A stretch of DNA of 64,000 nt from assembly GCA_965203905.1 (NCBI GenBank), contig CBDBDQ010000005.1:1344001-1408000 (forward strand). The letters are read 5' to 3'. This document shows, in pieces, positions 15,093 to 64,000 of the stretch (the stretch's first letter is position 1; every line of letters starts with the position of its first letter). The notes below the pieces were generated by a model, which ran no database searches, was not told where the DNA came from, and saw nothing but the letters and a program-made list of their open reading frames with translations. The position numbers and the translations under genes were made by a program. The stretch is from Spirochaetia bacterium (GTDB taxonomy: Bacteria; Spirochaetota; Spirochaetia; SZUA-6; Bin103).

Positions 15093-15219
15093 ATTTCGGA
15101 CGGTACCGGACGGGGCATTCATCCTGCTGGACTACTGCAAATGAGGGGCGACCTTTCCGTCGAACGTGGTAGGCTGCAACGCCGTATGGACACTGCGGGA
15201 TGGCATTCGAGCGCGTGGC

Positions 15220-15298
15220 GAATTGAGCGGTATCTGACCGTTCTGCGGCGTGAGGTTGCACAAGCCGTCTTGCGGCTGCGGCGCTGGCGTCGTGACCT
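15220..15298 (+). repeat. Diverged copy of the trailer sequence that follows the array lipoprotein genes; itself resembles a LuxR-regulator 3' end
   Basis: TCTTGCGGCTGCGGCGCTGGCGTCGTGACCT versus TCTTGCGGCTGTGGCGCTGGCGGCGTGACCT at 51643-51673. It is preceded by GAGGTTGCACAAGCCGTC (EVAQAV, as in the regulator C-terminus). Confidence 0.7.
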
Positions 15299-16401: not shown

Positions 16402-16518
16402 AGACCGGTCGATCCGACCCGACTATAAGTGGACCAAAGTGGACTCGGGTTACCGCAACTGAGGGAGCTCGCGGGGTAGACAGCGTCCGCCGGGGTGGTC
16501 CGCCGGGGTGGAAGTGAA

Positions 16519-47067: not shown

Positions 47068-48864
47068 TTATTCGCGCTCCAACAGGTTACTGGACGCCGG
47101 CGCGTCCGCCGGTCGGACCGTGACGTAGTAGGAGCCGATGGTGCGCTCGACGCGGTCGTGGAACGCCGCCGAGAGCCGATCCGGGCCGGCCTGGAGTGAC
47201 ACCTCGAACACCGCGGCGGTTTCGCCGGACGGGGTCTCCAGGTGGTGGCTGCTGCCGCCCACCGTCAGTGCGGCCCAGCCGATCGGCAGCGCCACGCCGC
47301 CCGAGTAGTGCGCCGCGTGCTGCTCCTGGATGGCGTCGCGGCGCCACTCCACGTCGTCGCCGTCGATGCCGGCGTCCAGGGCGTAGCCGGCGTCCTCCGG
47401 CCAGCGCCGCAACTCGATGCGGTAGCGGCCGGCGCGGCGCACGTCGATCGCCCAGTAACCGCCGGCGACGTGGCCCTGCCGCACCTGGGCCTGGTTCCAG
47501 GCGCCGTTGCACGCCTCGTTGCGCAGGTCGTGGGTGGTGAGCCGCACGGGTTCGGCGTCGCCGCCGATCACGATCGGGATGTCGCGGTCGAACTGCGCGG
47601 AGACCAGCTCCCACCACTTCTCGTAGCCGGCGCGCAGCTCGGCCACCACCTCCGGATGGTCGGCTGCAATGTCGTTGCGCTGTCCCGGGTCGTCGCCGAG
47701 ATGGTACAGCTCGCGCCCGTGCAGCAGCCGCCAGGGGCCGCGCATCACCGAGCTCAGGCGCCACTTCGCGGGGTTGGCGATGCGCTGGGTGTCGGCCACC
47801 ATGACGCGCTGCGCCCAGGTGCCGTCGTCCTCGCCGCGTACCAGCGGAGTCAGGCTGCGGCCGTGGAACGAGCGTTGCGGCGGCGGCGTGACGCCGCACA
47901 GGTCCAGGATCGTCGGCATGAAGTCCACGTAGCTGGTGAGCTGCTCGACGTCGCGGCCGCCACGGGCGTCGCCGCCCGGGTAGCGCAGGAGAAAGGGGAC
48001 CCGGTGCCCGCCCTCGTAAGGTGAGCCCTTCTTGCCGCGCATGCCGGCGTTGAAGCTGCCCGGCCCTTCCTGCGGGAAGCCGTCCTCGTCCAGCTCCACC
48101 CCCGTGGCGGTGCCGTTGTCGGTCATGAACACCACGATGGTGTCGTCGGCCAGGCCCAGCTCGTCGAGCCGGCGCAGCAGCAGACCGAAGTTCTCGTCGA
48201 TGTTGGTGATCATGCCGTAGAAGCGGGCGCGGTCCTCGTGCGGGGTGGTGTCGGCATAGGCCGCGGCGTAGTGCGGCTCGACGTTGAGCGGGCCGTGCGG
48301 AGCGTTGGTGGAGATGTGGCAGTAGAACGGCTGGTCGCGGTGCTCCTCGATGAAGCGCAGGCCCTCGCGGAAGAACACGTCGGTGCAGTATCCCTCGAAC
48401 TTGCGCGGTTCGCCGTTCACGTAGTAGGTGTCGTCAAAATAATCGTTGCCCCAGGGGTCGCCGATGTTGCCGATGCCGCCGCCGTTGTGGTAGACGGCGC
48501 GCTCGAAGCCGCGCTCGTGGGGGCGGAACGGCTGGCTGTCGCCCAGGTGCCACTTGCCGAACTGGCCGGTGCGGTAGCCCGCCTCGCGCAGGGCGTCGGC
48601 CAGGGTCCACTCGTCCTCGCGCAGCAGCGACCGGCCGCCGATCGTGTGCCACACCCCGGCGCTGTTGCAGAAGTGGCCGGTCAGCAGGCCGGCGCGGGTC
48701 GGGGCGCAGGTGGTGCCGACGTGAAAGTCGGTGAACCGCACCGCCTCGCCGTGGAACCGGTCCAGGCTGGGGGTGTTGATGACGCCGTTGCCGTGACAGC
48801 CCAGGTCGCCGTAGCCCTGGTCGTCGGTAAGAACAAATACGAAGTTCGGTCGCGCTCTTGCCAT
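47068..48864 (-). CDS. Arylsulfatase (formylglycine-dependent)
   Basis: RPNFVFVLTDDQGYGD, CAPTRAGLLTG (CxPxR), GKWHLG, TDNG and YEGGHRVP. Confidence 0.95.
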   Translation of the reverse strand: MARARPNFVFVLTDDQGYGDLGCHGNGVINTPSLDRFHGEAVRFTDFHVGTTCAPTRAGLLTGHFCNSAGVWHTIGGRSLLREDEWTLADALREAGYRTGQFGKWHLGDSQPFRPHERGFERAVYHNGGGIGNIGDPWGNDYFDDTYYVNGEPRKFEGYCTDVFFREGLRFIEEHRDQPFYCHISTNAPHGPLNVEPHYAAAYADTTPHEDRARFYGMITNIDENFGLLLRRLDELGLADDTIVVFMTDNGTATGVELDEDGFPQEGPGSFNAGMRGKKGSPYEGGHRVPFLLRYPGGDARGGRDVEQLTSYVDFMPTILDLCGVTPPPQRSFHGRSLTPLVRGEDDGTWAQRVMVADTQRIANPAKWRLSSVMRGPWRLLHGRELYHLGDDPGQRNDIAADHPEVVAELRAGYEKWWELVSAQFDRDIPIVIGGDAEPVRLTTHDLRNEACNGAWNQAQVRQGHVAGGYWAIDVRRAGRYRIELRRWPEDAGYALDAGIDGDDVEWRRDAIQEQHAAHYSGGVALPIGWAALTVGGSSHHLETPSGETAAVFEVSLQAGPDRLSAAFHDRVERTIGSYYVTVRPADAPASSNLLERE

Positions 48865-48980
48865 TTCGCGATCAAGCTTATCATTCTCCCGTGCCCGCGT
48901 CGCGCCGGCTGCCAAAAGAATCCCTCGTCAACGGTCGCCTCATCGGCGTCACTCCTACGTACTCCCCAAAAAAAAGGAAT

Positions 48981-48998
48981 CCTGCTAATTCTGGTAGG
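48981..48998. promoter_or_regulatory. Degenerate copy of the array palindrome upstream of the regulator (CCTGCTAATTCTGGTAGG, followed by GACTC)
   Basis: 15/18 match to CCTACCAATCCTGGTAGG, with the same 3' flank GACTC as four of the five array copies. Confidence 0.7.
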
Positions 48999-49052
48999 GA
49001 CTCAGATCGCAATCCACGGCAGTAAAGTAGCGCTGCAGCAGGCAGAGTCATC

Positions 49053-50201
49053 ATGAGCGACCGAGACGCATTCGAGCGCATCCTGGCGTCGCTGTACGAC
49101 GCCATGCTCGACGATACCCAGTGGCCGGTTACTTCCACCCTGATTGACGAAGCCTGCGGCCTGACGGGCAATTCACTCCTCGTTGGGGAAGGCCCGATGG
49201 ACGACATCCAAGCGCACTTCGTCGGGGTCTACTACCGTGGGCAGCGCCGTACCGATCTGGAGCGCGAGTACACCGAGGTCTACCACCCTATCGACGAAAT
49301 GGTACCGCGCCTTCGGAATCAGTCCGACGGACGACTGGTGCAGATCTCCGACCTGTACACGACGGAAGAGTTGAAGACCTCGCCCACCTACAATGAGATA
49401 TTGCTGCGAGGCAAGTACCAGAATGGCTTGGCCGTGCGCATAGTCGCCGCGGATGGCGTCTACAAGAGCTGGGGCCGCTGGTGCCTCGCCGATCCCGTGG
49501 GCTCGGAGGACCGGAGTTCTTCGCAGATCAAGATGATCGCGCGGCTAGTGCCGTACATCCGACAGTTTTTTCGCGTCCGGCAGGCGCTGGTCCGCGCGCA
49601 GGCTCGGGCAGTGACCGCGGCCACCCTGCTCGATAACCCCCGACTCGGCGTTGTACACCTGGACCGGCGTGGTCGGATCATGGCGGTGAATGACCGCGCT
49701 CGCGGCATCCTGCGACACGGCGACGCGTTGTCCGACCGGGATGGGGAGTTGCATGCCCGTACGCCGGAAGACCGGCGCCGTCTGGAGCGTCTGCTGGGCG
49801 CCGCTCTGCCGACTTCCGGTGCTGTCGCGCTCAGTGGGTCGATGCCGCTCCGCCGCTCGTCTGCGCTGCCGCCGTTGGTGGTGCACGTCAAACCCGTGGC
49901 GGTCCAGCAACCGCACTACGGAGCGCGGTTCATCGCGGCGCTGGTACTGATCGAAGAGCCGGGGCGCCGGCATCGTATCGACCCACGCTTGATAGCCGCG
50001 GCTCTGGGGCTGACGCCGAGGGAAAGTCAGGTAGCGGCTTGGCTGGCGGAAGGCAAGAGTGTCGACGAAATGGCCCAGGCCACGGGTCACACCAGGGGCG
50101 CCATCTATTGGCACCTGAAGCAGATCTACCAGAAACTGCACATCTCACGGCAGCCGGATCTGGTGCGGCTGGTGCTGTCGGTCGCCGAGTTGGGCTACTA
50201 A
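49053..50201 (+). CDS. GAF/PAS plus LuxR-type HTH transcriptional regulator heading the lipoprotein array
   Basis: MSDRDAFERILASLYDAMLDDTQWP, GVVHLDRRGRIMAVN, and LGLTPRESQVAAWLAEGKSVDEMA...HLKQIYQKLHISRQPDLVRLVL. Paralogue of 16519-17724. Confidence 0.93.
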   Translation: MSDRDAFERILASLYDAMLDDTQWPVTSTLIDEACGLTGNSLLVGEGPMDDIQAHFVGVYYRGQRRTDLEREYTEVYHPIDEMVPRLRNQSDGRLVQISDLYTTEELKTSPTYNEILLRGKYQNGLAVRIVAADGVYKSWGRWCLADPVGSEDRSSSQIKMIARLVPYIRQFFRVRQALVRAQARAVTAATLLDNPRLGVVHLDRRGRIMAVNDRARGILRHGDALSDRDGELHARTPEDRRRLERLLGAALPTSGAVALSGSMPLRRSSALPPLVVHVKPVAVQQPHYGARFIAALVLIEEPGRRHRIDPRLIAAALGLTPRESQVAAWLAEGKSVDEMAQATGHTRGAIYWHLKQIYQKLHISRQPDLVRLVLSVAELGY

Positions 50202-50495
50202 CCGCAACGCCACCCACCTCCTCGGTGAGCAGTCCAATTGCTTGGCTGCGTCCTCAGTCCTACCAATCCTGGTAGGGACTCTCGGGTAATCGTGTCAGAA
50301 GATCGTTCTCGTCAGTCACCCGACTCCGACCTGCGTGCAAGGCAAGCGCGGCCGCGCCAGACCTCGGCAAGCGCTTCCAACCGCTCCGGAGGGCGTGGTG
50401 CAAGTGTCTGGCAAGACGGTTGGGGACGCAGGTTAGTGGATGCGATGGTATTCGCTTATGGCACAGCCTTCGAAAGTGCAGGAGAGGAGAATCAA

Positions 50496-51593
50496 ATGAA
50501 GTCTCGTCGAATCAGTAGACTGCTGGCGGTTTCCGCTGCCGTCGCCGCAGCGGTGGTGCTCTTGGCAGGTTGCCCAAGGGCGGTCAAGACACCGATCAGT
50601 TTCGCCGCGGGCGACCTTACGCTGACGCTACCGGCAATGGTGATAGGCACGGCCATCTCCGCAATAGTGTTGCCGGAGGCGTCCGGGGGAGAAGGTGCTC
50701 TCACCCACACTCTAGCTCCCGAGGTCCCGGGCCTTACGTTCGACCCCGAGACCCGGCAGTTGAACGGAATACCGACTACGGCCGGAAGCTATCCGCTGCG
50801 TTACACGGCAACGGATGAAGACGGCGCCACGGCCACCCTGAGCTTTGTGGTTACGGTAAGACCGACACTCTGGGGCTCTTGGCGTAACACCAGCAGATGG
50901 GACCATGACGGAGAAATCGTGGGAACGATCGTGGAGACTCTGACGTTCACTACCAGCAGGTTCATCATGTACAGGTCATACTATCGGACCGATGGTTCGT
51001 TGGACGGCAGGGATTGGGAGAGTGGTACCTGGGCAGCATCTGACGACACCGTGACAAAGACTTGGTATGTCAATGACGACGACGACCGCGACACTCCGGA
51101 CGTCCTCAGGAGTCTGGACAAGGACTATGTGTGGGCGGATGAGGCGCGCGACGTGTTATTTTTGCACGTATGGCGCCGTTGGAGTGACAGTCAGAATTTC
51201 GATCGTTACGAGCGCGTTCAAAATGTATCGCCGTCGTCGGTCGTCGGCGTATGGCAGAACTCCGATCTGTACGACGATTGGGACTTTACGCTTACGGTAA
51301 ACGCCGATGGCACGTTGCTGCTTGAGCATTCGTGGCCCGAAGGAATTGACACGGTGACTGCAGAGTGGCAACTCGATGAGGATGAATACTATCTCAATCT
51401 GTCCGACGCTAGCGCCACCTGGACCCCAACCGATGGAGTACCGCAACCTCATGGAACCATTGCGCCTCGGTTTGCCTTCGCTCCCACCGATCAGTGGCCG
51501 GACGAGATGATCGTGTCCTTCTGGCAGGAGAACCCGGCCGTCGGAAGTTATAGCAGGTTCGGGGTCTATTGGATGCTATTCCAACGGCAATAG
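50496..51593 (+). CDS. Array lipoprotein 1 (He_PIG-like Ig domain plus two lipocalin-like repeats)
   Basis: GAGGAG RBS, lipobox LAGC, LPEASGGEG..PGLTFDPETRQL.G.PT.AG.Y..YTATDEDG, and two GxW repeats. Confidence 0.9.
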   Translation: MKSRRISRLLAVSAAVAAAVVLLAGCPRAVKTPISFAAGDLTLTLPAMVIGTAISAIVLPEASGGEGALTHTLAPEVPGLTFDPETRQLNGIPTTAGSYPLRYTATDEDGATATLSFVVTVRPTLWGSWRNTSRWDHDGEIVGTIVETLTFTTSRFIMYRSYYRTDGSLDGRDWESGTWAASDDTVTKTWYVNDDDDRDTPDVLRSLDKDYVWADEARDVLFLHVWRRWSDSQNFDRYERVQNVSPSSVVGVWQNSDLYDDWDFTLTVNADGTLLLEHSWPEGIDTVTAEWQLDEDEYYLNLSDASATWTPTDGVPQPHGTIAPRFAFAPTDQWPDEMIVSFWQENPAVGSYSRFGVYWMLFQRQ

Positions 51594-51795
51594 TCGAATT
51601 GGCCGCGTACTCGGCTACCGATGCGCCATCCTCTGCGAGACTTCTTGCGGCTGTGGCGCTGGCGGCGTGACCTCGGTTGGCGTGGTCCACTAATACTGGA
51701 TGCTCTCCGCGGGAGACTACAGCGGCGGGCGTCATGCCGGCTCATCCGACTGGAGAAGTTGCCTCACCGGGCCCGTGAGACGGCTATCGACAAGG

Positions 51796-51827
51796 AGATC
51801 AGGCAGGACGACGATCCTGCCTGATCT
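51796..51827 (+). terminator. Conserved trailer hairpin AGATCAGGCAGGA-CGACGA-TCCTGCCTGATCT (also ~54797, 56449-56482 with TTTT, and 61357-61386)
   Basis: Perfect 12-14-bp stem in three trailers and a slightly mismatched one in the fourth. A U-tract is present only after copy 3. Confidence 0.6.
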
Positions 51828-51883
51828 GTCTACGCAAGGATCTGGTGCGGCTGGTGCTGTCGGTCGCCGAGTTGGGCTACTAA

Positions 51884-53192
51884 GGAGTCTCGCCAAAATA
51901 AGTTGGTCTTTTAGTCACTGTCGGGGAGTCAGCATGTAGTTCCATTCGCCGTGAAACCGATCGCGCTTCAGATTCAGTGCCTGCATCTGTTCGTCGCTCA
52001 CCGTCTGCCCCGTCGGGTAGCTGTTGTGGTCCAACTCCGAGCGGATCGTCAAGCCGCTCCTGGTCCTCGTGTGGCCGATCAGGTTCACCACCACCTGCCG
52101 GCTCACCAGCGGTCGCCCGCGCCAGTTCTCGGTGATGTGACAGAACATCCGATGCTCGATCTTGTTCCACTTGCTGGTCCCCGGCGGAAAGTGACACACC
52201 GAGATGCGCAGCCCCGTGGCATCGGCGAACTGCTGCAACTCCACCTTCCACAGCCGACTGCGACTGCTGTTGGAACCGCCCCCGTCGGCCGTGATCAGCA
52301 ACCGCCGCGCCTGTGGATACGCCATATGGCCCATCCTCTGCCACCACCTCCGCAGTGTCTCCACGGCGAATACCGCGGTGTCGTGATCCTCCCCCACGCT
52401 CACCCAGCCGGTGTCACCGGTCACGTCGTAGATCCCGTACGGAATCGCCTTGCCGAGCGTCTTATCCACGAAATCGTGCACCTTGACGCGCTCCGGTTGG
52501 CCCTTCGGGCGCCACTCTCGACCCCCGTTGCGGTACTCGCCCACCAACTCCTTTTTCTTGGTGTCAACAGAAACTACCGGCTGCCGCAGAGCCTGAAACG
52601 CGCGCACCCTCCGGTTGATGTGCTTGAACTGCGCATCGCGGTCGACATGCTGCGTGCCTTCCAGCGTCTTGCGGTTGGCCTGCAGGCTGTAGCCCAACTC
52701 ATGCAACAGCCGGTTCACGGTCCGCTCGCTCACCGGGTGACCGGCCGCCTGCAGTTCCTCGGCCAACCGCGCCGCGCTACTGCAGGTCCACAGCAACGGC
52801 CCCATCGGGTCGCCGCGGGTGACCGGGTCGACCAACCGCTCCAGCGCCTGTGTCAACTTCGGGTCGCGGGCGGTCAACGGCTTACGGCCTGCGCCGGGTC
52901 GTCGCTGGCGTCCGCTGTTGGCTTGTGCCCCTGCTGCTGCGCCGGCATCCAGTTCCTTCAGCCCGGCGTGAATGGTGGTCCGCGAGATCCCGGTGGCGGC
53001 TGCCACACAGGCGATGCCGCCACGGCCCAGCAGGCGCGCCTCCACCGCAGCCCAGCGGCGCCGGAGGCGCTCGTCAAACAATGGATTCAGGGCTGCGAAC
53101 TTGGTCTTGACCGCTTGGGTGAGAATTGGGTCCACTACGTCTGAGTAGATTATCGGCTACTCCTTTCGACCACTTTATTTTGGCGAGAGCCC
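51884..53192 (-). mobile_element. ISAzo13-family insertion sequence with 3-bp TAA target duplication
   Basis: 25-bp inverted repeats GGAGTCTCGCCAAAATAAGTTGGTC / GGGCTCTCGCCAAAATAAAGTGGTC, with TAA at 51881-51883 and 53193-53195. Removal restores GGGCTACTAACCGCAACG, as at 50192. Confidence 0.95.
51915..53135 (-). CDS. ISAzo13-family DDE transposase
   Basis: RGDPMGPLLWT, SVDTKKKELVG, ITADGGGSN and HFPPGTSKWNKIEHRMF. Confidence 0.95.
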   Translation of the reverse strand: MDPILTQAVKTKFAALNPLFDERLRRRWAAVEARLLGRGGIACVAAATGISRTTIHAGLKELDAGAAAGAQANSGRQRRPGAGRKPLTARDPKLTQALERLVDPVTRGDPMGPLLWTCSSAARLAEELQAAGHPVSERTVNRLLHELGYSLQANRKTLEGTQHVDRDAQFKHINRRVRAFQALRQPVVSVDTKKKELVGEYRNGGREWRPKGQPERVKVHDFVDKTLGKAIPYGIYDVTGDTGWVSVGEDHDTAVFAVETLRRWWQRMGHMAYPQARRLLITADGGGSNSSRSRLWKVELQQFADATGLRISVCHFPPGTSKWNKIEHRMFCHITENWRGRPLVSRQVVVNLIGHTRTRSGLTIRSELDHNSYPTGQTVSDEQMQALNLKRDRFHGEWNYMLTPRQ

Positions 53193-53497
53193 TAACCGCA
53201 ACGCCACCCACCTCCTCGGTGAGCAGTCCAATTGCTTGGCTGCGTTCTCAGTCCTACCAATCCTGGTAGGGACTCTCGGGCAATCGTGTCAGAAGATCGT
53301 TCTCGTCAGTCACCCGACTCCGACCTGCGTGCGAAGCATGCGACGCCGCGCCAGACCTCGGATAGCGATCCCACCCGCTCCGGAGGGCGTAGAGCAAATG
53401 CTTGGGAAGGCGGTTGACGGTTGGGGGACGCAGGTTGGTGGATGCGATGGCATTCGCTTATGGCGCAGGCTTCGAATGTGCAAGAGAGGAGAATCAA

Positions 53498-54619
53498 GTG
53501 AAGTTTCGTCGACTCAGTAGACTGCTGGCGGTTTCCGCTGCCGTCGCCGCGGTGGTGCTCTTGGCAGGTTGCCCAAGGGCGGTCAAGACGCCGATCAGTT
53601 TTGCCGCGGGTGACCTTACGCTGACGCTACCGGCAATGGTGAAAGACACGGCCATATCCGCAGTTGTGTTGCCGGAGGCGTCCGGGGGAGAAGGTGCTTT
53701 CTCCTATGCCCTGGCTCCCGAGGTTCCGGGCCTTACGTTCGACCCCGAGACCCGACAGTTGAGCGGGACCCCGACTACGGCCGGAAGCTATCCGTTGCGC
53801 TACACGGCGACGGATGAAGACGGCGCCTCGGTCACCCTGAGCTTCACGGTCACGGTAAGACCGACGCTGTGGGGCTCTTGGCGTACCACCAGCAGATGGC
53901 ACGATGACGGAGAACTCGTGGGAACGGTCGTGGAGACTCTGACGTTCACTACCAGCAGGTTCATCATGTACAGAGCACACTATCGGACCGATGGTTCGTT
54001 TGACGGCAGAGCGTTGGAGAGTGGTACCTGGACAGCATCTGACGACGCCGTGACAAAGACTTGGTATGTCAATGACGACGACGACCGCGACACTCCGGAC
54101 GTCCTAAGGAGTCTGGACAAGGACTATGTGTGGGCGGATGGGGCGCGCGATGTGTTACTGTTGCACGAATGGCGCGGTTGGAGTGCCAGTCAGAGTTTCG
54201 ATCGCTACGAGCGCGTTCAAAATGTATCACCGTCGTCGGTAGTCGGCGTATGGCAGAGGTCGGGAATGGGGGACGATTGGTCTTTCGTTCAAACGCTTAC
54301 GGTATACCCCGATGGCACGTTGCTATACGAGAATTCGTGGTCTGAACGAGAGTCCGGAGGAGTTTGGGAGATGACTGCAAACTGGCAGCTTGTTGAGGAT
54401 GAGTACTATCTCAATCTGACCGACGCTAGCGCCACCTGGACCCCAACCGGTGGAGTAACGGAACCGGACTCAGATTTTGAGGGTGCGTCTCGGTGGGCCT
54501 TCGCTCTCACCGACCAGTGGCCGGACGAGATGATAGTGTCGCCCTTCTGGGACGAAGATCCGGCCTATGATAGTTATAGAGAGTATGGACACTACTGGAT
54601 GACCTTCCAACGGCAATAG
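53498..54619 (+). CDS. Array lipoprotein 2
   Basis: GTG start after GAGGAG, lipobox LAGC, same architecture as lipoprotein 1. Confidence 0.9.
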   Translation: MKFRRLSRLLAVSAAVAAVVLLAGCPRAVKTPISFAAGDLTLTLPAMVKDTAISAVVLPEASGGEGAFSYALAPEVPGLTFDPETRQLSGTPTTAGSYPLRYTATDEDGASVTLSFTVTVRPTLWGSWRTTSRWHDDGELVGTVVETLTFTTSRFIMYRAHYRTDGSFDGRALESGTWTASDDAVTKTWYVNDDDDRDTPDVLRSLDKDYVWADGARDVLLLHEWRGWSASQSFDRYERVQNVSPSSVVGVWQRSGMGDDWSFVQTLTVYPDGTLLYENSWSERESGGVWEMTANWQLVEDEYYLNLTDASATWTPTGGVTEPDSDFEGASRWAFALTDQWPDEMIVSPFWDEDPAYDSYREYGHYWMTFQRQ

Positions 54620-55159
54620 TCGAATTGCGCCGCGTACTCAGTTACCGAGCGCCATCCTCTGCGAGGCTTCTTGCGGCTGTGGCGCCGGCGGCGTGACCTG
54701 GGTTCGCGGAGGACACTGAGCAGCGGGCGTCGTGTCGGCTCATCCGACCGGAGAGAGTGCCTCACCGGCCTCGTGACACGGGCTATCGGCAAGGAAATCA
54801 GGCAGGACGACAATCCTGCCTGGTCTATCTACGCAAGGATCTGCTCTGTCGGTCGCCGAGTTGGGCTACGAACCCCGGGTCCTCGGCGGGCAGTCCGGTT
54901 TGCTTGCTGGCTTTCTCAGTCCTACCAATCCTGGTAGGGACTCTCGGGCAGTCGTGTCAGAGGATCGTTCTCGTCAGTCACCGACTCCGACCTGCGCGCA
55001 AACGCATGCGCGGCCGCGCCCAACCCCTCGGATAGCGATTCCATCCGCTCCGGAGGGGACGGTGCACGTTGCTTGGAAGGCGGTTGGGGACGCAGGTTAG
55101 CGGATGCGACGATATTCGCTTTTGGCACAGCCTTCGAAAGTGCAAGAGAGGAGAATCAA

Positions 55160-56248
55160 ATGAAGTCTCGTCGAATCAGTAGACTGCTAGTGGTTGCCAC
55201 TGCCGTCGCCGCGGTGGTGTTCTTGGTAGGTTGCACAAGGGCGGTCAAGACGCCTATCAGTTTCGCCGCGGGCGACCTTACGCTGACGCTACCGGCAATG
55301 GTGAAAGGCACGGCCATCTCCGCAGTCGTGCTGCCGGAGGCGTCCGGGGGAGAAGGTGCTCTCACCCACACTCTAGCTCCCGAGGTCCCGGGCCTTACGT
55401 TCGACCCCGAGACCCGACAGTTGAGCGGGACACCGACTACGGCCGGAAGCTATCCGCTGCGTTACACGGCGACGGATGAAGACGGCGCCACGGCCACCCT
55501 GAGCTTCACGCTCACGGTAAGACCGACGCTGTGGGGCTCTTGGCGTAACACCAGTATCCGGTACTATGACGGCGAAGTGGGAACGGTCGTGGAGACTCTG
55601 ACGTTCACTACCAGCAGGTTCATCATGTACAGGTCATACTATCGGCCCGATGGTTCGTTTGACGGCTGGCATTGGGAGAGTGGTACCTGGGCAGCATCTG
55701 ACGACACCGTGACAAAGACTTGGTATGTCGATGACGACGACGACCACGAGACTCCGGAAGTCCTCAGGAGTCTGGACAAGGACTATGTGTGGGTGGATGA
55801 GGCGCGCGATGTGTTATTGTTGCACGAATGGCGCCGTTGGAGTGCCAGTGAGACTTTCGATCGCTACGAGCGCGTGAAAAGTGTATCGCCGTCGTCGGTA
55901 GTGGGCGTATGGCAGAACTCCGATCTGTACGACGATTGGGACTTTACGCTTACGGTTAACGCCGATGGCACGTTGCTGTTCGACGCTTCGGAGCTCGGCG
56001 GAGTTTGGAAGGTGACTGCAAAGTGGCAGCTCGATGAGGATGAGTACTTTCTCAATCTGACCGACGCGACCGACGTCTGGACCCCAACCGGTGGAGTACC
56101 GCAACTTCGGAACCTTGCGTCTCGGTTTGCCTTCGCTCCTACCGATCAGTGGCCGGATGGGATGACAGTGTCCTTCTGGCACGAAGACCCGGACCATCCC
56201 AATTTTAAAGAGTTCGGGTCCTATTGGATGACCTTCCAACGGCAATAG
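55160..56248 (+). CDS. Array lipoprotein 3
   Basis: ATG after GAGGAG, lipobox LVGC, same architecture. Confidence 0.9.
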   Translation: MKSRRISRLLVVATAVAAVVFLVGCTRAVKTPISFAAGDLTLTLPAMVKGTAISAVVLPEASGGEGALTHTLAPEVPGLTFDPETRQLSGTPTTAGSYPLRYTATDEDGATATLSFTLTVRPTLWGSWRNTSIRYYDGEVGTVVETLTFTTSRFIMYRSYYRPDGSFDGWHWESGTWAASDDTVTKTWYVDDDDDHETPEVLRSLDKDYVWVDEARDVLLLHEWRRWSASETFDRYERVKSVSPSSVVGVWQNSDLYDDWDFTLTVNADGTLLFDASELGGVWKVTAKWQLDEDEYFLNLTDATDVWTPTGGVPQLRNLASRFAFAPTDQWPDGMTVSFWHEDPDHPNFKEFGSYWMTFQRQ

Positions 56249-56537
56249 TCGAATTGCGCCGCGTACTCAGCTACCGAGCGCCATCCTCTGCGAGGCTTCT
56301 TGCGGCTGTGGCGCCGGCGGCGTGACCTGCGTTGGCGTGGTCCACTGATACTGGATGCTCTCGTGGGAGAGTGCAACAGCGGGCGTCATGCCGGCCCATC
56401 CGACCGGAGAAGGTGCCTCACCGGGCCCGTGAGACGGCTATCGACAAGGAGATCAGGCAGGACGACGATCCTGCCTGATCTCTTTTCGTCTAACCCCAGC
56501 GTCAACGACTCCTACCTCAGGTAGGAAGGAAAGAATC

Positions 56538-59500
56538 TTGAGAGCAAGAGTAGTAGCGATACTGGAGATACTGGTCGCTGTCATTGCTGTTGCCCTGGTC
56601 ATGGGGTGCAGCGGATCGGTGATGGGCATGATCGAAACTCCTGCTGCCGAGCCACGACCTGAGAAGACACCATCTGAGCAGGCGGAAAAAACCACGATCA
56701 CTTTCCGGGTAGTGGAGCCCCTCCTTGCGGACAGAAATGGTCCGGGTGTAGCAGCAGTGAAGGTTATCCTCCAGTCCGGACAGGAAAAAGTGAAGGAAAC
56801 AGCTACCGACGGCAGCGTTACCTTCGTGGGCAGCCTCCCTCTCACCGTCCGGATTGAAAAACCCGGCTATATCACCACCACAGCCACCGTGACGGACGAG
56901 TCAGGCCAGGAGATCGTCTTTCCCAACGAGTGGCCGGAGGAGGCAAAAGAAGCCATTCGCCAACTTGGCTTAGAGGAGATGATTGCTTCAGGTGAGCTTG
57001 TCCTGAGGTGGGGGGACACCGAGTTCCTCTATACCCTTGATGGAGATGTGGGGGGACTGTACGTTTGTCCTAACATAATCATTAGGGATCACACCAATAA
57101 CGGAAACCGCCGGATGTGGATCTTGGTTCACGAACTAATGCATGTTTGGCAAGGTTTGAACTCCACAAATCCACCTTGCGAGATTGATCCTGGCTGGACT
57201 CAGTCCGAGGAAGGCAGGGCTTGGATTGCCGCCATAGATGAGGACCTCAGGGAAGTTGGCCCCATCTCCGGTTTTGATGATTCGGCATGGGCATCAAAGG
57301 ATGTTCCACACGAGAATCAGGCCTCGTTTTATGCCCAATGGGCATATGGCCTTGAGAGAACAAGAGAGGAGCTGGAAAAACTCTGTGGCTTAGCACCAAA
57401 CCGGTGCCGGTACCTGCAGGACAGATTCGGACCTCCGCCGCCGCGCATGACCGGGACCAACAGCGCGCCGACGGCAGACGCCGGCCCTGATCAGACGGTG
57501 ACCGCGAGCGACACCGTGACCCTCCGGGGCAGCGGCACCGACGCCGAAGACCAGAACCTGACCTACTCCTGGTCGCAGACCGGTGGCGTACCGACCGTCG
57601 AGTTGCGCTCGGACCAGGCCGCAACCTCCTTCACTGCACCCGACGTAGACGCGGTTACCATGCTCACCTTCGCGCTCACGGTGACCGACTCGGGCGGCCT
57701 CACGGGTACCGATTCCGTGACTGTCACGGTCCTGCCCCCGCTCTCCGTGGCGGTCTCCGTGACGTTCGTCGAAGACTCCGTGCGCGTCGTGGAAGGGGAA
57801 GAGGTGGCCGTTGGCATCCGGTACCGAGCCCGGGAGCTCGCCTCGCCGCTGACGATCCAGGTCTCCGTGCTTGAGGACCAGGCCGAGGCGGCCGACTACG
57901 AATTGTCGGAGACCCGTTTCGAGATCCCGGCCGGGAGAGACATTCTGGGAACCCTGGAACTCACCCTCAGCACGCGGACCGACGACTCCTTCGCCGAGGG
58001 GGAGGAAGCCATCGAGCTGCGGCTCTTGGTGCCTGAGGCGATTGGAGCGGAGGTCGGAGGGCCGCTCTCGGTGACGATCTCCGATGCCGCGGTGTCCGCC
58101 TGCGTTGGCGTCACCCTGGCAGGCACGCCTCCCGAACCCGTGGAAGAAGTTGGAGGGCTCCGGATCCGCACTTCGCTGACCTCGGAGTGGCACGCGAGCG
58201 CGCGGGAAGTAACGATGCGGTGGGTCGGCCCATATGGCGAGGTATGGCATTGGGTCGATGTCGAGCACCACCCGTATTACGACGAGAGAGCCAAACCCTT
58301 TCCGCCACCACCCGACTTCCATATCGAGGCGTGGCAGTTCGATCCCGGAAGCGCCTCCACCACCCACATGATGGATGTCTCGTGGTCAGCCAAGGCCGAC
58401 CTGGAACTCATGTTCCGCTGCCAAACCGGCGCCGTTGTCGCCGTCTGCGATTCGGCGGGATGTACGATCGAGGCGACGACGGCATCCCGTACGATATCCG
58501 GCAGTCCGAGCGCACTCCATTCAGCGCTCTGGGGCGAGGGCTCGGAAAGCGGACTTCGAGCTGCGTCCTACCTCGTTGCGCCGGATCGAAGGTGGCATCC
58601 GTCAGTGTGGGGACCGGGCGATACGCTTGTTTTTCACCTTTCGACGGAAAACTGGCCGGACGACGCCCGGATGACGCCAGCGGACGTGAAGGAAGTTCTG
58701 GAGAGGATGCTGGCCGAGTGGTCGGCTGTTCCAACGGCGGACATCTCCTGGCGAGTCGAAGGACCGGCGGACGGGCTCTTGCCGGGAAAGGACGGGAAGA
58801 ACATCTTCTGGATAGACCCGGGGTACGTGCACGGCGGTGGTAGCGGACCAACGAGATGGTACGAGACTATCGATGGGGTCCACGGACTGGTGGAGGCTGA
58901 TCATCGCATCGACCCCAACTCGCTGAGAGTGTCAAGTTACGACAGGCCGTGGCCCTACATCGCCAATGAGCTGGGTATGCACCCTCTCGGCCATACCCTC
59001 GGCTTGGAACATGCGGCTACGTTCCCTGTTTTTTCGCCTTGTCCGGGGCCGCGCTCAGATGACTGCGGACGGGTCGACGGGGACCTCGGCTATTGGCGAG
59101 ATGTCCGCGGCGCCTGGCAACTGGACCCGATCATGTCGTACGGGGCGTCCGGCACTTTGAGCTTTCTGGACGATGGGTCGGCCTTGCGGCTCGACGACAA
59201 GATCGGGGCGTCGCTGCTCCGCCCGAAACCCGGCTGGCTCGAAACTACCGGCTCGATTGCCGGGTCAGTCAGCACCGATGACGGGCGGCCGGTTCCGTTC
59301 ATCCACGTATGGGCCGTGCGGCCCGACGAGCGCGGCCTGATGGACGGTACAGGGTCGTTCGCCAACCGGAACGGCGACTTTCTGATCCGGGGCCTACCGC
59401 CCGGAGACTGGATCCTCATCGCACATCCGGACTTGTCCTGGCTGGCGAATCCGTGGTTCTTCTTCGAGCGGCAGGGCGAACTGACCGACGAGATGATGCT

Positions 59501-59585
59501 CTTCCCGGTGCGCGCCCGCGCCGGGCAGACGACATCAGGCATCGAGATCACCATGTCGCGGGGCCGGATGACGACAGTGCCGTGA
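56538..59585 (+). CDS. Multidomain lipoprotein: HExxH zincin + PKD-like + Calx-beta-like + matrixin-like + carboxypeptidase-regulatory-like domains
   Basis: Lipobox VMGC, VHELMH, APTADAGPDQTV..YSWSQ, DDSFAEGEE, HPLGHTLGLEH with Met-turn PIMSY, and GDFLIRGLPPGDW. Confidence 0.8.
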   Translation: MRARVVAILEILVAVIAVALVMGCSGSVMGMIETPAAEPRPEKTPSEQAEKTTITFRVVEPLLADRNGPGVAAVKVILQSGQEKVKETATDGSVTFVGSLPLTVRIEKPGYITTTATVTDESGQEIVFPNEWPEEAKEAIRQLGLEEMIASGELVLRWGDTEFLYTLDGDVGGLYVCPNIIIRDHTNNGNRRMWILVHELMHVWQGLNSTNPPCEIDPGWTQSEEGRAWIAAIDEDLREVGPISGFDDSAWASKDVPHENQASFYAQWAYGLERTREELEKLCGLAPNRCRYLQDRFGPPPPRMTGTNSAPTADAGPDQTVTASDTVTLRGSGTDAEDQNLTYSWSQTGGVPTVELRSDQAATSFTAPDVDAVTMLTFALTVTDSGGLTGTDSVTVTVLPPLSVAVSVTFVEDSVRVVEGEEVAVGIRYRARELASPLTIQVSVLEDQAEAADYELSETRFEIPAGRDILGTLELTLSTRTDDSFAEGEEAIELRLLVPEAIGAEVGGPLSVTISDAAVSACVGVTLAGTPPEPVEEVGGLRIRTSLTSEWHASAREVTMRWVGPYGEVWHWVDVEHHPYYDERAKPFPPPPDFHIEAWQFDPGSASTTHMMDVSWSAKADLELMFRCQTGAVVAVCDSAGCTIEATTASRTISGSPSALHSALWGEGSESGLRAASYLVAPDRRWHPSVWGPGDTLVFHLSTENWPDDARMTPADVKEVLERMLAEWSAVPTADISWRVEGPADGLLPGKDGKNIFWIDPGYVHGGGSGPTRWYETIDGVHGLVEADHRIDPNSLRVSSYDRPWPYIANELGMHPLGHTLGLEHAATFPVFSPCPGPRSDDCGRVDGDLGYWRDVRGAWQLDPIMSYGASGTLSFLDDGSALRLDDKIGASLLRPKPGWLETTGSIAGSVSTDDGRPVPFIHVWAVRPDERGLMDGTGSFANRNGDFLIRGLPPGDWILIAHPDLSWLANPWFFFERQGELTDEMMLFPVRARAGQTTSGIEITMSRGRMTTVP

Positions 59586-60072
59586 CCGAGCGCAGCAGGC
59601 GTGCCGACTGATCGGCGCCAGCCGGTGATGATGTCTCGCACGTGACAATAAGCAAAGCACAATAAGCAAAGCGCCGGCAGCGATAACCGGGCAGCAGTGC
59701 GTTCGGGCGCGACGTGGACTATGCAGCGGAGCCACCAGTTCGGCTGGCGCTGTCGGTCGCCGAGTTGCGCTACTAACCGCAACGCCGCCCGCTAACCCGG
59801 TTGGTAGTCCGAATGCTTGGCCGCGTTCTCAGTCCTACCAATCCTGGTAGGGACTCTCGGGCAATCGTGTCAGAGGATCGTTCTCGTCAGTCACCCGACT
59901 CCGACCTGCGTGCAAGGCATGCGCGACCGCGCGCCCACCCTCGGCAAGCGATCCCACCCGCTTCGGAGGGCGTAGAGCCGGTGCCTGGGAAGGCGGCTGG
60001 GGACGCAGGTTAGTGGATGCGATGGTATTCGCTTATGGCGCAGGCTTCGAATGTGCAAGAGAGGAGATTCAA

Positions 60073-61152
60073 GTGAAGTTTCGTCGACTCAGTAGACTGC
60101 TGGCGGTTTCCGCTGCCGTCGCCACGATGGTGTTCTTGGCAGGTTGCCCAAGGGCGGTCAAGACGCCGATCAGTTTCGCCGCTGGTGACCTTACGCTGAC
60201 GCTACCGGCAATGGTGAAAGGCACGGCCATCTCCGCAGTCGTGTTGCCGGAGGCGTCCGGGGGAGAAGGTGCTTTTACCTATGCCCTGGCTCCCGAGGTC
60301 CCGGGCCTCACGTTCGACCCCGAGACCCGACAGTTGAGCGGGACACCGACTGCGGCCGGAAGCTATCCGCTGCGTTACACGGCAACGGATGAAGACGGCG
60401 CCTCGGTCACCCTGAGCTTCCCTGTCATGGTAAGACCGACGCTGTGGGGCTCTTGGCGTAACACCAGCAGATGGCACCATGACGGAGAAGTGGGAACGAT
60501 CGTGAAGACTCTGACGTTTACCAAGAGCAGGTATATCCTGTATGAGTCGTTGAATAGAGAGGACGGTTCGTTGTACCGCAGGCATTGGCAGAATGGTGCC
60601 TGGACAGCGTCTGACGACACCGTGACGAAGACTTGGTATCACTATAACGAAGACGGCGAGACTTCAGCCGTCCTCACGAGTCTGGAAAAGGACTATGTAC
60701 TATCGGATGAAGGTAACACATTGTTCGTTCCGGACTGGTGGGATTCCGCCGGCGTGGAGACGAGGTTTACGCGCTACGAGCGCGTGCATAATGTATCGCC
60801 ATCGTCGGTAGTGGGCGTATGGCAGAACTCCGAGCGGTCGGACGATCGGGACTTTGCGCTTACGGTAAACGCCGATGGCACGTTGTTATTTGATTATTCG
60901 GAGCCCGAAGGAGTTCATACGGTGACTGCAAAGTGGCAGCTCGATGAGGATGAGTACTATCTCAATCTGACCGACGCTAGCGCCACCTGGACCCTAACCG
61001 GTGGAGTACCGCAACCTGGAACCTCTGCGCCTCGGTTTGCCTTTGCTCCTACCGATCAGTGGCCGGACGAGATGATAGTGTCCTTCTTCCAGGAAGACCC
61101 GACCGACTATAGAAAGTTCGGGCTCTATTGGTTGCACTTCCAACGGCAATAG
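60073..61152 (+). CDS. Array lipoprotein 4
   Basis: GTG start, lipobox LAGC, same architecture with a more diverged first lipocalin-like repeat. Confidence 0.9.
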   Translation: MKFRRLSRLLAVSAAVATMVFLAGCPRAVKTPISFAAGDLTLTLPAMVKGTAISAVVLPEASGGEGAFTYALAPEVPGLTFDPETRQLSGTPTAAGSYPLRYTATDEDGASVTLSFPVMVRPTLWGSWRNTSRWHHDGEVGTIVKTLTFTKSRYILYESLNREDGSLYRRHWQNGAWTASDDTVTKTWYHYNEDGETSAVLTSLEKDYVLSDEGNTLFVPDWWDSAGVETRFTRYERVHNVSPSSVVGVWQNSERSDDRDFALTVNADGTLLFDYSEPEGVHTVTAKWQLDEDEYYLNLTDASATWTLTGGVPQPGTSAPRFAFAPTDQWPDEMIVSFFQEDPTDYRKFGLYWLHFQRQ

Positions 61153-61421
61153 TCGAATTGCGCCGCGTACTCAACTTCCGATGCCCCATCCTCTGCGAGG
61201 CTTCTTGCGGCTGTGGCGCTGGCGGCGTGACCTCGGTTGGCGTGGTCCACTGATACGGGATGCTCTCCGCGGGAGACTGCAGCGGCGGGCGTCATGCCGG
61301 CTCATCCGACTGGAGAAGGTGTCTCACCGGCCTCGTGAGACTGCTATCGGCAAGGAGATCAGGCAGGACGACGATCCTGCCTGATCGGTCTACGAAACGA
61401 TCTGATTTGTCGGTCATGAAC

Positions 61422-61502
61422 TTGCCGCCGTTGGTGACGCACATCTCACGGCAGGCGGACTTGGTACGCATCGTGCTAGCGGTCGTCGAGTTGGGCTACT
61501 AA
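61422..61502 (+). pseudogene. Internally deleted paralogue of the LuxR-type regulator
   Basis: LPPLVTH (compare LPPLVVH at 49866-49886) is joined at GCAC to HISRQADLVRIVLAVVELGY* (compare HISRQPDLVRLVLSVAELGY*). Confidence 0.85.
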
Positions 61503-61783
61503 CCACAACGCCGCCCGCCTCCTCGGTGGACGCCCGATTGCTTGGCTGCGTTCTCAGCCCTACCAATCCTGGTAGGGATTCTCGGGCAATCGTGTCAGAG
61601 GATCGTTCCCGTCAGTCACCCAACTCCGACCTACGTACAAGGCATGCGCAGCTGCACGCTCCGGAGGGCGTAGAGCAAATGCTTGGGAAGGGGGTTGGGG
61701 TTGGGGGTTGGGAACTCAGGTTAGTGGATGCGAAGGTATTCGCTTATGGCGCAGGCTTCGAAGGTGCAAGAGAGGAGATTCAA

Positions 61784-62908
61784 GTGAAGTTTCGTCGACT
61801 CAGTAGACTGCTGGCGGTGTCCGCTGCCGTCGCCGCGGTGGTGTTCTTGGCAGGTTGCCCAAGGGCGGTCAAGACGCCGATCAGTTTCGCCGCGGGCGAC
61901 CTTACGCTGACGCTACCGGCAATGGTGATAGGCACGGCCATCTCCGCAGTCGTGTTGCCGGAGGCGTCCGGGGGAGAAGGTGCTTTCACCTATGCCTTGG
62001 CTCCCGAGGTCCCGGGCCTTACGTTCGACCCCGAGACCCGGCAGTTGAGCGGGACACCGACTGCGGCCGGAATCTATCCGTTGCGTTACACGGCAACGGA
62101 TGAAGATGGCGACGCGGCCACCCTAAGCTTCACGGTTACGGTACGACCGACGCTGTGGGGCTCTTGGCACAATACCCATGGATGGGGAGACGGGGGAACA
62201 GAAGTGGAAACTCGGACGTTTACCAACAGCAGGTACATCATATATCGGTCGTACTATCACAAGGACGGTTCGTTTGACGGCAGCTGGCAGGAGAGTGGTA
62301 CTTGGACGGCATCTGACGACACGGTGACGAGGACTTGGTATTACGACGACGACGGCGACCCCGAGACTCCGCGAATCCGGAGGAGTCTGGACTCGGACTA
62401 TGTATGGGCGGATGAGGCGCACAATGTGTTGTTTATTCCCTTCTGGGAACCTTGGCCTGACACTCACGTGGACCCGGGTTTCCGTCGCTACGAGCGCGTG
62501 CAAAATGTATCGCCGTCTTCGGTAGTCGGCGTATGGCAGAGGTCGGACATGGGGGACGATTGGTCTGTCGTTGACACGCTTACGGTGAACGCCGATGGCA
62601 CGTTGCTATATGAGAATTCGTGGTCTGGACGAGAGTCCGGAGGAGTTTGGGAGATGACTGCAAACTGGCAGCTTGTTGAGGATGAGTACTATCTCAATCT
62701 GACCGACGCTAGCGCCACCTGGACCCCAACCGGTGGAGTACCGGAACCGGACTCCTCTTTTCTGGGTGCATCCAGGTTTGCCTACGCTCCTACCCATCAG
62801 TGGCCGGACGAGATGATAGTGTCGCCCTTCTGGCACGAAGACCCGGCCTATGGTGACAGAAATTATAGAGAGTTCGGAAACTACTGGATGACCCTCCAAC
62901 GGCAATAG
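61784..62908 (+). CDS. Array lipoprotein 5
   Basis: GTG start, lipobox LAGC, same architecture. Confidence 0.9.
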   Translation: MKFRRLSRLLAVSAAVAAVVFLAGCPRAVKTPISFAAGDLTLTLPAMVIGTAISAVVLPEASGGEGAFTYALAPEVPGLTFDPETRQLSGTPTAAGIYPLRYTATDEDGDAATLSFTVTVRPTLWGSWHNTHGWGDGGTEVETRTFTNSRYIIYRSYYHKDGSFDGSWQESGTWTASDDTVTRTWYYDDDGDPETPRIRRSLDSDYVWADEAHNVLFIPFWEPWPDTHVDPGFRRYERVQNVSPSSVVGVWQRSDMGDDWSVVDTLTVNADGTLLYENSWSGRESGGVWEMTANWQLVEDEYYLNLTDASATWTPTGGVPEPDSSFLGASRFAYAPTHQWPDEMIVSPFWHEDPAYGDRNYREFGNYWMTLQRQ

Positions 62909-63012
62909 TCGAATTGCGCCACGCGCCTGGACTCGGCCTACAACGGACTTGGCCCGTGGTGGAACGCCGGAGCGTCGCACACGAATGCGACGCTTCCGGA
63001 ACAAAGCCCTAC

Positions 63013-63245
63013 TTCGGTAGAAGAGGGGAGCCTTGAGAGCAAAATATGTATATCTGACACAGGCTCTGTGCCTGTCATTACTGTTGTCAGGCACACAAGG
63101 GAAAGGATGTTGCACATCATGGAGCACGAACTCTTCCATGGGCACCAATACGAATACGGGCCCGACTCCGGCCCGAGTGCCGACAAGTGCAACCTGAAAC
63201 CCTGGCGAGACTCAGCGGAAGGTCGGGCTTGGAAAGCGGCCTAGA
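63013..63245 (+). pseudogene. Heavily deleted remnant of a paralogue of the zincin lipoprotein N-terminal module
   Basis: CTTGAGAGCAA...CTGTCATTACTGTTG matches the start of 56538. CACGAACTCTTCCAT (HELFH) corresponds to HELMH, and GAAGGTCGGGCTTGG to GAAGGCAGGGCTTGG. Confidence 0.75.
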
Positions 63246-63409
63246 ATGCCGATCGTGACGCCGGTCTTCGAGATCCCTTGGATGATTATGTGGGATAAGA
63301 TCCAACCCACCAGGAAGGCCACCGAAGGCTCAGCCGAGTTCTGGGCTTGGTGGCGTCGAGCCGAGCCTGGTCACCAGAGCCAAGTCCGCGACCTCTGCAA
63401 AATCGCCAC

Positions 63410-63535
63410 CTCACGGTGTGCACTGATGGAGCATTGGTGGACAAGTCGCTCCTCCGCCAGTTCCTCGGGACGCTGGATGCTGCCATCATGCGCAAGGTCT
63501 GCCGGGCTGTCGCCATCGCTACGGGCTGCGGCTGA
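63410..63535 (+). pseudogene. Probable C-terminal fragment of a MazF/PemK-family toxin
   Basis: TVCTDGALVDKSLLRQFLGTLDAAIMRKVCRAVAIATGC resembles the PemK C-terminal helix region. No N-terminus or antitoxin is present. Confidence 0.55.
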
Positions 63536-63671
63536 GCTCAGGGGTCGGCGCACGTATGCCGACGCGGCGGCTGGACAGCGCCAGGCCGCGTTGTGCGACT
63601 GGATGGGACGCCCCGCCGGCCTCGGAAATTGCGCACGAGTCTGACTCCGTGCGCCGGGCGGGGCCCCCTGC

Positions 63672-64000
63672 TCAAGAGCCCCACACCCGTTCAAACAGGC
63701 GCAGCCAGTTGCCTCCCAGCAGCTTGCCGATCTCTTCGGCGCGGTAGCCGCGGGCGGCCAGCGCGGCGGCCAGGTTGGGCAGCTCGGCCGGGGTTTCGAT
63801 TCCCTGCGGCTGGAAGCTCAGCTCGGTGTACGGGATCGAGCCGTCGGCAAAGGTCGAAGGAAACCGGGTGCCTTGCTGGGAACCGATGTAATGCCAGAAC
63901 TCCAGTGGCTGATCGTGGGTGGAATCGGTGCCGAAGGCCACGTGGTCGATGCCGATCCGCTGCACCAGGTCGTCGATGGCGTCGACGAAGTCCTCCACCG
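63672..64000 (-). CDS. Membrane dipeptidase (M19), 3' portion; the gene begins beyond the window
   Basis: IGIDHVAFGTD...LAARGY..EEIGKLLGGNWLRLFERVW. Confidence 0.9.
   Translation of the reverse strand, partial: VEDFVDAIDDLVQRIGIDHVAFGTDSTHDQPLEFWHYIGSQQGTRFPSTFADGSIPYTELSFQPQGIETPAELPNLAAALAARGYRAEEIGKLLGGNWLRLFERVWGS

Follow-up and report, generated by a model that had tools for sequence, protein, structure and literature searches.

A tandem array of lipoprotein genes with relics of a LuxR-type regulator gene in a Spirochaetia bacterium: probable expansion by ordinary duplication

A 64,000-nucleotide stretch of the genome of a Spirochaetia bacterium (contig CBDBDQ010000005.1, positions 1,344,001 to 1,408,000 of the forward strand), called the window here, contains at 48981-62937 an array that consists of a 21-bp box, an intact gene for a LuxR-type regulator, designated reg1, and five paralogous lipoprotein genes, each preceded by the 3' end of the regulator gene or a remnant of it. 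The array is probably the product of a tandem expansion, specific to this lineage, of a gene for a surface lipoprotein under the control of a LuxR-type one-component regulator and its paralogues, with the repeated regulator ends as an ordinary duplication scar. The initial annotation of this DNA had described one intact regulator followed by five paralogous Ig-lipoprotein genes, a regulator 3' tail and a leader of about 300 bp in each cassette, and a trailer of about 250 bp behind four of the genes, and all of these elements were recovered by motif counts and blastn at the positions given below.

A 21-nt motif from the regulator tail, searched with a tolerance of up to 3 mismatches, was found in 5 copies, each with at most 1 mismatch, ending at 50201, 51883, 54872, 59776 and 61502, while none was expected by chance (100 shuffles). 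In blastn comparisons with reg1, tails 2-5 matched over 46 nt (100% identity), 27 nt (96%), 39 nt (92%) and 64 nt (84%). The leader, about 290 nt long, was 89, 86, 87 and 76% identical between the first cassette (50202-50495) and the other four. A trailer of about 245 nt, ending in a 10-bp hairpin, followed lipoprotein genes 1-4 with 77-93% identity, and only about 30 nt of it followed gene 5. The cassettes are direct repeats with a spacing of 1655-1756 nt between neighbors, larger only where an insertion sequence (1308 nt) or a 3-kb gene intervenes. An Rfam scan of 48000-64000 gave no family match (best E 0.41). The G+C content of the window is about 67% and is lower in the array region; it was 0.59-0.64 across 50000-64000 and mostly 0.65-0.73 in the rest of the window.

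All parts of the array lie on the plus strand except the insertion sequence. The variant box (48981-49001; 3 mismatches, nhmmer E 1.4e-05) is located 52 nt before the start codon of reg1 (49053-50201, 382 aa). Leader 1 (50202-50495) comprises a hairpin (50229-50249), a box (50259-50279) and an untranslated leader of about 215 nt, and is followed by lipoprotein gene 1 (50496-51593, 365 aa, lipobox LAGC) and trailer 1 (51594-51837), which ends in a 10-bp hairpin. Tail 2 (51838-51883) is the last 46 nt of reg1, identical at 46 of 46 positions, with weak homology from 51824. An ISAzo13-family insertion sequence (51884-53191, minus strand) precedes leader 2 (53192-53497, box 53253-53273), gene 2 (53498-54619, 373 aa) and trailer 2 (54620-54845), which has a 32-nt internal deletion. 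Tail 3 (54846-54872) shares its junction with tail 2, is internally deleted and has GAA in place of the stop codon TAA; it leads into leader 3 (54873-55159, box 54921-54941), gene 3 (55160-56248, 362 aa) and trailer 3 (56249-56481), which has no tail after it. Instead, the gene for an unrelated 1015-aa lipoprotein with PKD and CarboxypepD_reg domains and no box (56538-59585) splits cassettes 1-3 from cassettes 4-5. Tail 4 (59732-59776, 39-45 nt) has a junction unlike that of tails 2 and 3 and encodes the peptide end ELRY, as does P0010, a reg1 paralogue described below; it is followed by leader 4 (59777-60072, box 59834-59854), gene 4 (60073-61152, 359 aa) and trailer 4 (61153-61404). The last cassette begins at 61405-61502 with an 18-nt piece of the tail-3 type and an eroded regulator consisting of an LPPLV.H block and the last 64 nt (HMM i-E 3e-4 for 61440-61496), continues with leader 5 (61503-61783, box 61559-61579 with 1 mismatch) and gene 5 (61784-62908, 374 aa), and stops after the short trailer remnant.

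The box, CCTACCAATCCTGGTAGGGAC(TC), occurs in 6 copies in the window, where none was expected by chance, one in front of each lipoprotein gene and one in front of reg1. One intact regulator thus faces five lipoprotein genes that carry the same operator-like box, which bears out the earlier notion of one sensor over several genes. The box is a 7-4-7 palindrome, CCTACCA-N4-TGGTAGG, followed by a conserved GAC. Its core was nearly invariant over 65 sites, with a conserved TA at +40/41. The box overlaps a -35-like element, GGGACT or GTGACT, and the conserved TA is found about 18 nt beyond it, which would place the center of the palindrome near -42. Lux boxes sit near -42.5. The arrangement suggests a lux-box-like activator site overlapping a weak -35 element, with the putative -10 element about 18 nt further on, and the variant box before reg1 is read as a candidate autoregulatory site. 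As in lux-box systems, the candidate target is an 18-bp palindrome at a position where it would overlap a -35 element, and it is also present before the regulator gene itself. An apparent symmetric co-variation of box positions 3 and 14 was considered and found unconvincing. A further palindrome, CCTACC-TCA-GGTAGG at 56505-56530, has the half-sites of the box with a 3-nt spacing and is missed by the box model; it lies immediately upstream of the gene for the 1015-aa PKD lipoprotein, whose ribosome-binding region it overlaps.

When the five leaders were folded (50300-50498 in the window and the corresponding parts of the other four), CGUUCUCGUC at the 5' end of the leader paired with the ribosome-binding site GAGAGGAG. 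Compensatory changes were seen in only 2 of the 51 pairs of this predicted fold, and the pairing could mask translation.

The protein encoded by reg1 has a C-terminal helix-turn-helix (HTH) domain that matched Pfam GerE (PF00196, residues 320-373, 33.6 bits against a cut-off of 23.5). The AF2 model (pLDDT 86.7) has two alpha/beta, PAS/GAF-like sensor domains ahead of the HTH, and Foldseek matched it to phytochrome PAS-GAF modules, the ligand domain of VqsR and the quorum-sensing receptors RhlR, QscR, SdiA and TraR, the last four with probability 1.00. From the modeled fold, reg1 is read as a one-component regulator that would sense a ligand through its two PAS/GAF-like domains. It resembles the LuxR quorum-sensing receptors (LuxR, TraR, LasR, RhlR, QscR, SdiA) in the C-terminal GerE/LuxR HTH and, for RhlR, QscR, SdiA and TraR, in the combined fold of sensor and HTH. 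Unlike those receptors, it is 382 aa long with two PAS/GAF-like domains in place of one autoinducer domain, and no Pfam match to Autoind_bind was found in reg1 at E<=0.01. A LuxI-type synthase gene, the partner of such receptors, was absent among the 42 window ORFs scanned with Pfam. The LuxR receptors also differ from the present family in that here there are many paralogues per genome, one common box and a fixed position of that box just behind the regulator stop codon. A homodimer prediction for reg1 scored 0.30 against a mark of 0.42. The recognition-helix residues W353-Q367 were at least 90% conserved in 32 sequences.

Regulators of this type form a large family. Among 8,000 candidates scored, 2,425 proteins matched at E<=1e-3, the best 120 of them at least 67% identical. 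The family has at least 2,425 full-length and 702 shorter protein clusters. One member, P0010, is a reg1 paralogue with 73% identity encoded on the same 7,785,191-nt contig as the window proteins. The 702 shorter clusters match the C-terminal half of the regulator, with certain lengths recurring (193, about 172 and about 150 aa), both in the protein database and at loci L057-L065 of the survey described below; some of the short matches may be working short forms rather than remnants.

The five lipoproteins are 71-82% identical, and each has a lipobox and an Ig domain of the He_PIG family followed by an unannotated C-terminal part. Purifying selection acts on all five genes (dN/dS 0.14-0.30 for the Ig part, 0.45-0.85 for the C-terminal part). 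In the structural model (pLDDT 80.8) the Ig domain resembles a module of the SraP adhesin and is followed by an all-beta domain. The latter belongs to a small unannotated family (135 representatives at E<=1e-3), of which 12 representatives scanned gave no Pfam match over this domain. The model would allow the lipoprotein to be called, at most, a surface-exposed binding protein. The lipoprotein family itself is tiny, with 17 proteins. A sixth paralogue, P0129, is encoded in the source genome outside the window, and a relative has four full-length paralogues together with a 226-aa piece on a 13,337-nt contig (P0121, P0122, P0124, P0127 and P0135). Two of the relative's proteins are 97% identical to those of genes 1 and 2, and the others are only 84-87% identical to any copy in the window, indicating that the content of the array differs between relatives. 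The relative's contig is also one reason why a collapsed or mis-joined repeat, for which nothing was found in favor, has a negligible chance of accounting for the array. In addition, the cassettes differ from each other by 3-40% per 100-nt block, each encodes a distinct intact protein, and the window proteins are found on a single contig of more than seven megabases.

The junctions between the trailers and the tails are informative as to how the cassettes arose. The sequence CTACGCAA joined to GGATCTG, or a close variant, was present after trailers 1, 2 and 4. Behind trailer 4, the same junction and a tail-3-type deletion continue for 18 nt and then give way to a different regulator piece, while trailer 3 has the 3-kb gene behind it instead of a junction. 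There are at least three junction types, one present three times and two unique. Tail 3 has, besides its internal deletion, a 10-nt deletion behind it. The recurrence of one junction is expected if a single founding unit was re-duplicated, since tails 2 and 3 then need no regulator deletion of their own.

The remnant in front of leader 5 (61421-61502) is of a different kind. Its LPPLV.H block, corresponding to reg1 residues 272-279, is fused directly to the last 20 codons of the regulator gene (a 64-nt tail), and the missing segment of about 250 nt is flanked in reg1 by the 8-nt direct repeats TGCACRTC. The tail 5 peptide has four differences from reg1, two of them common to P0010. The internal block and the private substitutions agree with the original description of 61422-61502 as an eroded paralogous regulator. 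A proposal that the trailer itself is a decayed regulator was rejected, as the tblastn match behind it (31% over 116 aa, E 0.001) was carried by the tail and an HMM built from 52 regulators matched the tails only.

The initial annotation had proposed a model in which the unit of amplification or acquisition was regulator, operator and cargo, with redundant regulators then deleted. Cassette 5, with its internal block and 64-nt tail, and the family at large agree with this model; tails 2 and 3 can be explained without it. In its strict form, every cassette arose as a complete unit whose regulator was then cut down to a tail, and as the sole mechanism this is unlikely. The substitutions in the cassette 5 remnant speak for it, as do the different junction and P0010-like ending of tail 4 and the fact that all grades of regulator decay are common in relatives, where 23 of 80 regulator copies are fragments. 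However, independent deletions would not repeat the identical junction seen in tails 2 and 3 and in the first 18 nt after trailer 4, and re-duplication of one truncated unit requires fewer events.

Under the preferred explanation, tandem expansion from a truncated unit, the sequence of events would be as follows. A reg1 dimer would bind the box palindrome and activate reg1 itself and the five lipoprotein genes in the manner of a lux box. The box is located 57 nt behind the reg1 stop codon (55-135 nt across the regulator family), so that a duplication taking in a working promoter would readily begin inside the regulator's 3' end and leave a tail. One such unit of tail, leader, gene and trailer, about 1.68 kb in length, would then have been re-duplicated by unequal crossing-over. 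Cassette 5, and probably cassette 4, would descend from units with a regulator of their own that subsequently decayed through deletions, including one between the 8-nt direct repeats. Since the recognition helix and the box are conserved across the family, the paralogues probably read the same sites and could act in trans, which would make extra regulators dispensable and allow them to decay while the boxes persist. The cassettes are mosaic, C2-C5 being 92-96% identical where C1-C2 are 60-83% identical, and the closest partner changes along the cassette; gene conversion would keep them so. The insertion sequence would have landed later in tail 2.

The regulator and its box were also surveyed in other genomes. 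A scan of genome contigs with reg1 yielded 66 loci, all in metagenome-assembled genomes other than the source genome. These were mostly labeled as Acidobacteriota lineages, for example Vicinamibacterales, and their regulators were at most 71% identical to reg1 over the full length. The leader, the trailer, the lipoprotein and the 1015-aa protein had no match in the 66 loci. With respect to orientation the association was strict, as 61 of 62 boxes (nhmmer E<=1e-3) pointed along the strand of the regulator. A box was found within 200 nt after the end of 22 of 55 full-length regulators and within 700 nt before the start of 16 of 57. All 80 regulator copies were on the plus strand; 57 were full length, 52 of these unbroken, and 3 of the 23 fragments lay at contig ends. 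The fragment end points were ragged, with query starts from 123 to 303, N-terminal pieces and internal deletions (L025:13626, L043), and two fragments (L025:8520-8765 and L055:7864-8568) had lost the 3' end and retained the box.

Tail-only remnants were also encountered in these loci. One preceded a box at L048:17875-17931 (HMM i-E 0.001), and another (L036:9636-9719, i-E 3e-10) lay ahead of an intact regulator and was not followed by any box that could be found. Two more, before boxes at L026:4571 and L059:16301, were recognized by peptide pattern only and were not significant (HMM i-E 0.36-0.38). Degraded tails were seen at six further boxes in one group of related genomes. A box with a conserved leader of more than 200 nt and a degraded tail stood before differing genes at L066:4713, 9427 and 18852, L026:4699, L059:16431 and L057:20075; the genes behind the leader encode a 1423-aa PPDK_N/fn3 protein, the regulator itself and a Calx-beta protein, and the long conserved leader of this group may be a structured RNA. 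Locus L048 offers an independent parallel to the array: two caspase/FGE genes with 76% identity stand there in tandem, both have a box, and the second has a tail as well. Pfam matches were obtained for 13 of 23 ORFs behind boxes and none for the other 10; the annotated cargo included an autotransporter, giant fn3/cadherin/Calx-beta proteins, Sel1 and LRR proteins, a TonB receptor and caspase plus FGE-sulfatase proteins.

The persistence of the tails raises the question of whether they are functional. The 3'-terminal 50-100 nt of the regulator gene might, together with the hairpin and the box, form one cis-regulatory block required by every working copy of the promoter, such as a terminator or insulator, an upstream promoter element or a second binding site, and the tail would then be under selection. 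In most of the 25 blastn matches listed, the last 80 nt or so of the regulator gene were 84-88% identical in DNA (range 75-93%) between genomes whose regulator proteins are about 65% identical, and in some of them the homology continued through the spacer to the box. The GC-rich hairpin between the stop codon and the box, drawn by hand and of moderate support, was 78% paired against 34-49% in slid controls, and it may be the regulator's terminator; RNAalifold predicted no structure for the stop-to-box alignment. The complete identity of tail 2 with reg1 and the degraded tails that persist before boxes in several genomes also favor a cis-acting block. Nevertheless, it is doubtful. The tails in the window vary from 27 to 64 nt, tail 3 has been shortened both internally and behind its end, the two fragments at L025 and L055 keep the box without the 3' end, and codon identity at synonymous sites was only slightly raised at the 3' end of the regulator gene (0.74-0.76 against 0.55-0.69 mid-gene).

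Several points weigh against the array being a simple duplication scar under a common regulator. Tail 2 is identical to reg1 at every position, yet genes 1 and 2 show a synonymous divergence of 0.24-0.28, so that either the tail must have undergone gene conversion recently or its DNA must be under selection. In the latter case the tail would not be a mere scar, and for this reason the cis-element explanation keeps some weight. A scan of the array for the sigma-70 consensus gave 0 sites against 3.3 expected, and the promoter assignment consequently rests on weak matches; activation, the transcription start and binding of the box by reg1 are all predictions from sequence. At the two positions, a detectable box accompanied no more than 22 of 55 and 16 of 57 regulators, and the box scan covered the surroundings of regulators. 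The fragments found as primary matches are biased toward C-terminal pieces because the most general search peptide was near the C-terminus.

The initial annotation had also allowed for the acquisition of cassettes; neither this nor a fixed recombination site is supported, given the ragged ends of the regulator fragments across loci. A dedicated, integron-like or site-specific capture system with the tail or the box as its attachment site would explain the identical junctions within the array, the strict orientation of the box and the presence of tail and box before unrelated cargo. It is very improbable, however. Each cassette comes with a full-length gene and with a promoter-like box to itself, the array leader and trailer are unmatched in the surveyed loci, and the Pfam scan of the array ORFs revealed no integrase or site-specific recombinase, the only enzyme of this kind being the DDE transposase of a self-contained insertion sequence.

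The transposase (51915-53135, minus strand, 406 aa) matched Pfam DDE_Tnp_ISAZ013 with 486 bits and the NCBIfam equivalog transpos_ISAzo13 with 594.5 bits against a cut-off of 200. The element has 26-nt terminal inverted repeats, 85% complementary, and a target duplication of 3-4 bp, TAA or CTAA. Its insertion point coincides with the border of tail 2 and leader 2, at the tail's stop codon, and the box of cassette 2 is intact 62 nt away. Removal of the element restores the tail-leader sequence seen behind the intact regulator, indicating that this was a late insertion and that the element did not make the array. Together with an IS21 pair on the minus strand at 2030-4361, which consists of an IstB-like ATPase (2030-2839) and an istA-type transposase with a Mu-transposase C-terminal domain (2805-4361), the intact ISAzo13 element (51884-53191) disproves the earlier statement that no recombinase is encoded in the window.

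Recombination without a dedicated enzyme may have a wider role. The regulator 3' end, hairpin, box and leader could constitute a portable promoter block that serves as the preferred substrate for RecA-type exchange among a genome's many regulator paralogues, at their conserved ends, and allows genes to be recruited in a counterpart of gene capture that needs no recombinase. This is a speculative and rather improbable extension; if true, new surface-protein genes would enter one regulon, with many sensors reading one box.

The array has partial counterparts among known systems. In cdiA/rhs orphan cassettes, each downstream cassette begins with a 3' fragment of the upstream main gene, and the cassettes described here likewise start with the 3' fragment of an upstream gene. 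Here, however, the fragment comes from a regulator rather than from the cargo's own gene, the genes are complete and have a start codon, a signal peptide and a promoter-like box of their own, the content of each cassette is one full-length lipoprotein gene rather than a toxin C-terminal domain with an immunity gene, and there is no sign that recombination with the head gene switches expression. Integron arrays have a row of cargo units behind one anchoring gene, as does the present array, but no integrase was found among the ORFs of the latter, its units are mutually paralogous rather than unrelated captured genes, and each of them carries a separate promoter-like box. A tandem cluster of paralogous lipoprotein genes, lpl, is located on the nuSa-alpha island of Staphylococcus aureus and shares the head-to-tail arrangement; it differs in that the units described here each carry a regulator relic and a box of their own, the protein families (here He_PIG and an unannotated beta domain) being unrelated (PMC4470592).

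Each mechanism invoked here is of a known kind, whether activation by a LuxR-type protein at a palindromic box, tandem duplication, gene conversion or the decay of pseudogenes. The family-wide module of regulator and box with its recurrent relics, which is widespread in soil Acidobacteria, appears to be undescribed; no description of it was found in the literature searched. The array is an unusually detailed record of the growth of a regulated gene family. A promoter located right behind the regulator gene would dictate the form of the duplication scar, and redundancy among paralogous regulators would let extra copies rot while their target sites stay. Members of the regulator family carry a nearly invariant box before diverse cell-surface and repeat proteins in Vicinamibacterales and related Acidobacteriota, and should the box prove to be the binding site, it would provide a direct readout of the surface-protein regulon in a poorly studied phylum that is hard to grow.

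A second set of tails in the window belongs to another regulator. reg2 (16495-17724, plus strand) is a paralogue with 45% identity to reg1. A reg2-type 3' shard with internal deletions and a box-like motif (15013-15150, plus strand, E 2.6e-13) precedes a CPBP protease gene (15350-16318), and a reg2-type tail with a box-like motif (9780-9836, plus strand, E 1.3e-4) precedes an autotransporter gene (10058-14734, 1558 aa). The motif CTAYTSCRAAT follows both shards and the stop codon of reg2 itself. The initial annotation had noted a regulator shard and a trailer homologue at 15013-15298; the shard is real but derives from reg2 and not from the array regulator, and the trailer homologue amounts to a single 31-nt match. 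The broader claim that the module occurs before different cargo is borne out by these two tails and by other genomes (for example L048, L026, L059 and L036). The 31-nt stretch (15268-15298), which lies between the reg2 shard and the CPBP gene and had no match in the 66 loci, is 94% identical to a piece of all four trailers, such as 51643-51673. Near the start of the window, an ORF at 367-2136 (589 aa) that had no Pfam match contains a near-identical segment of 26-27 residues three times, at 703-783, 1388-1465 and 1730-1807 on the minus strand, which came to light through chance tblastn matches.

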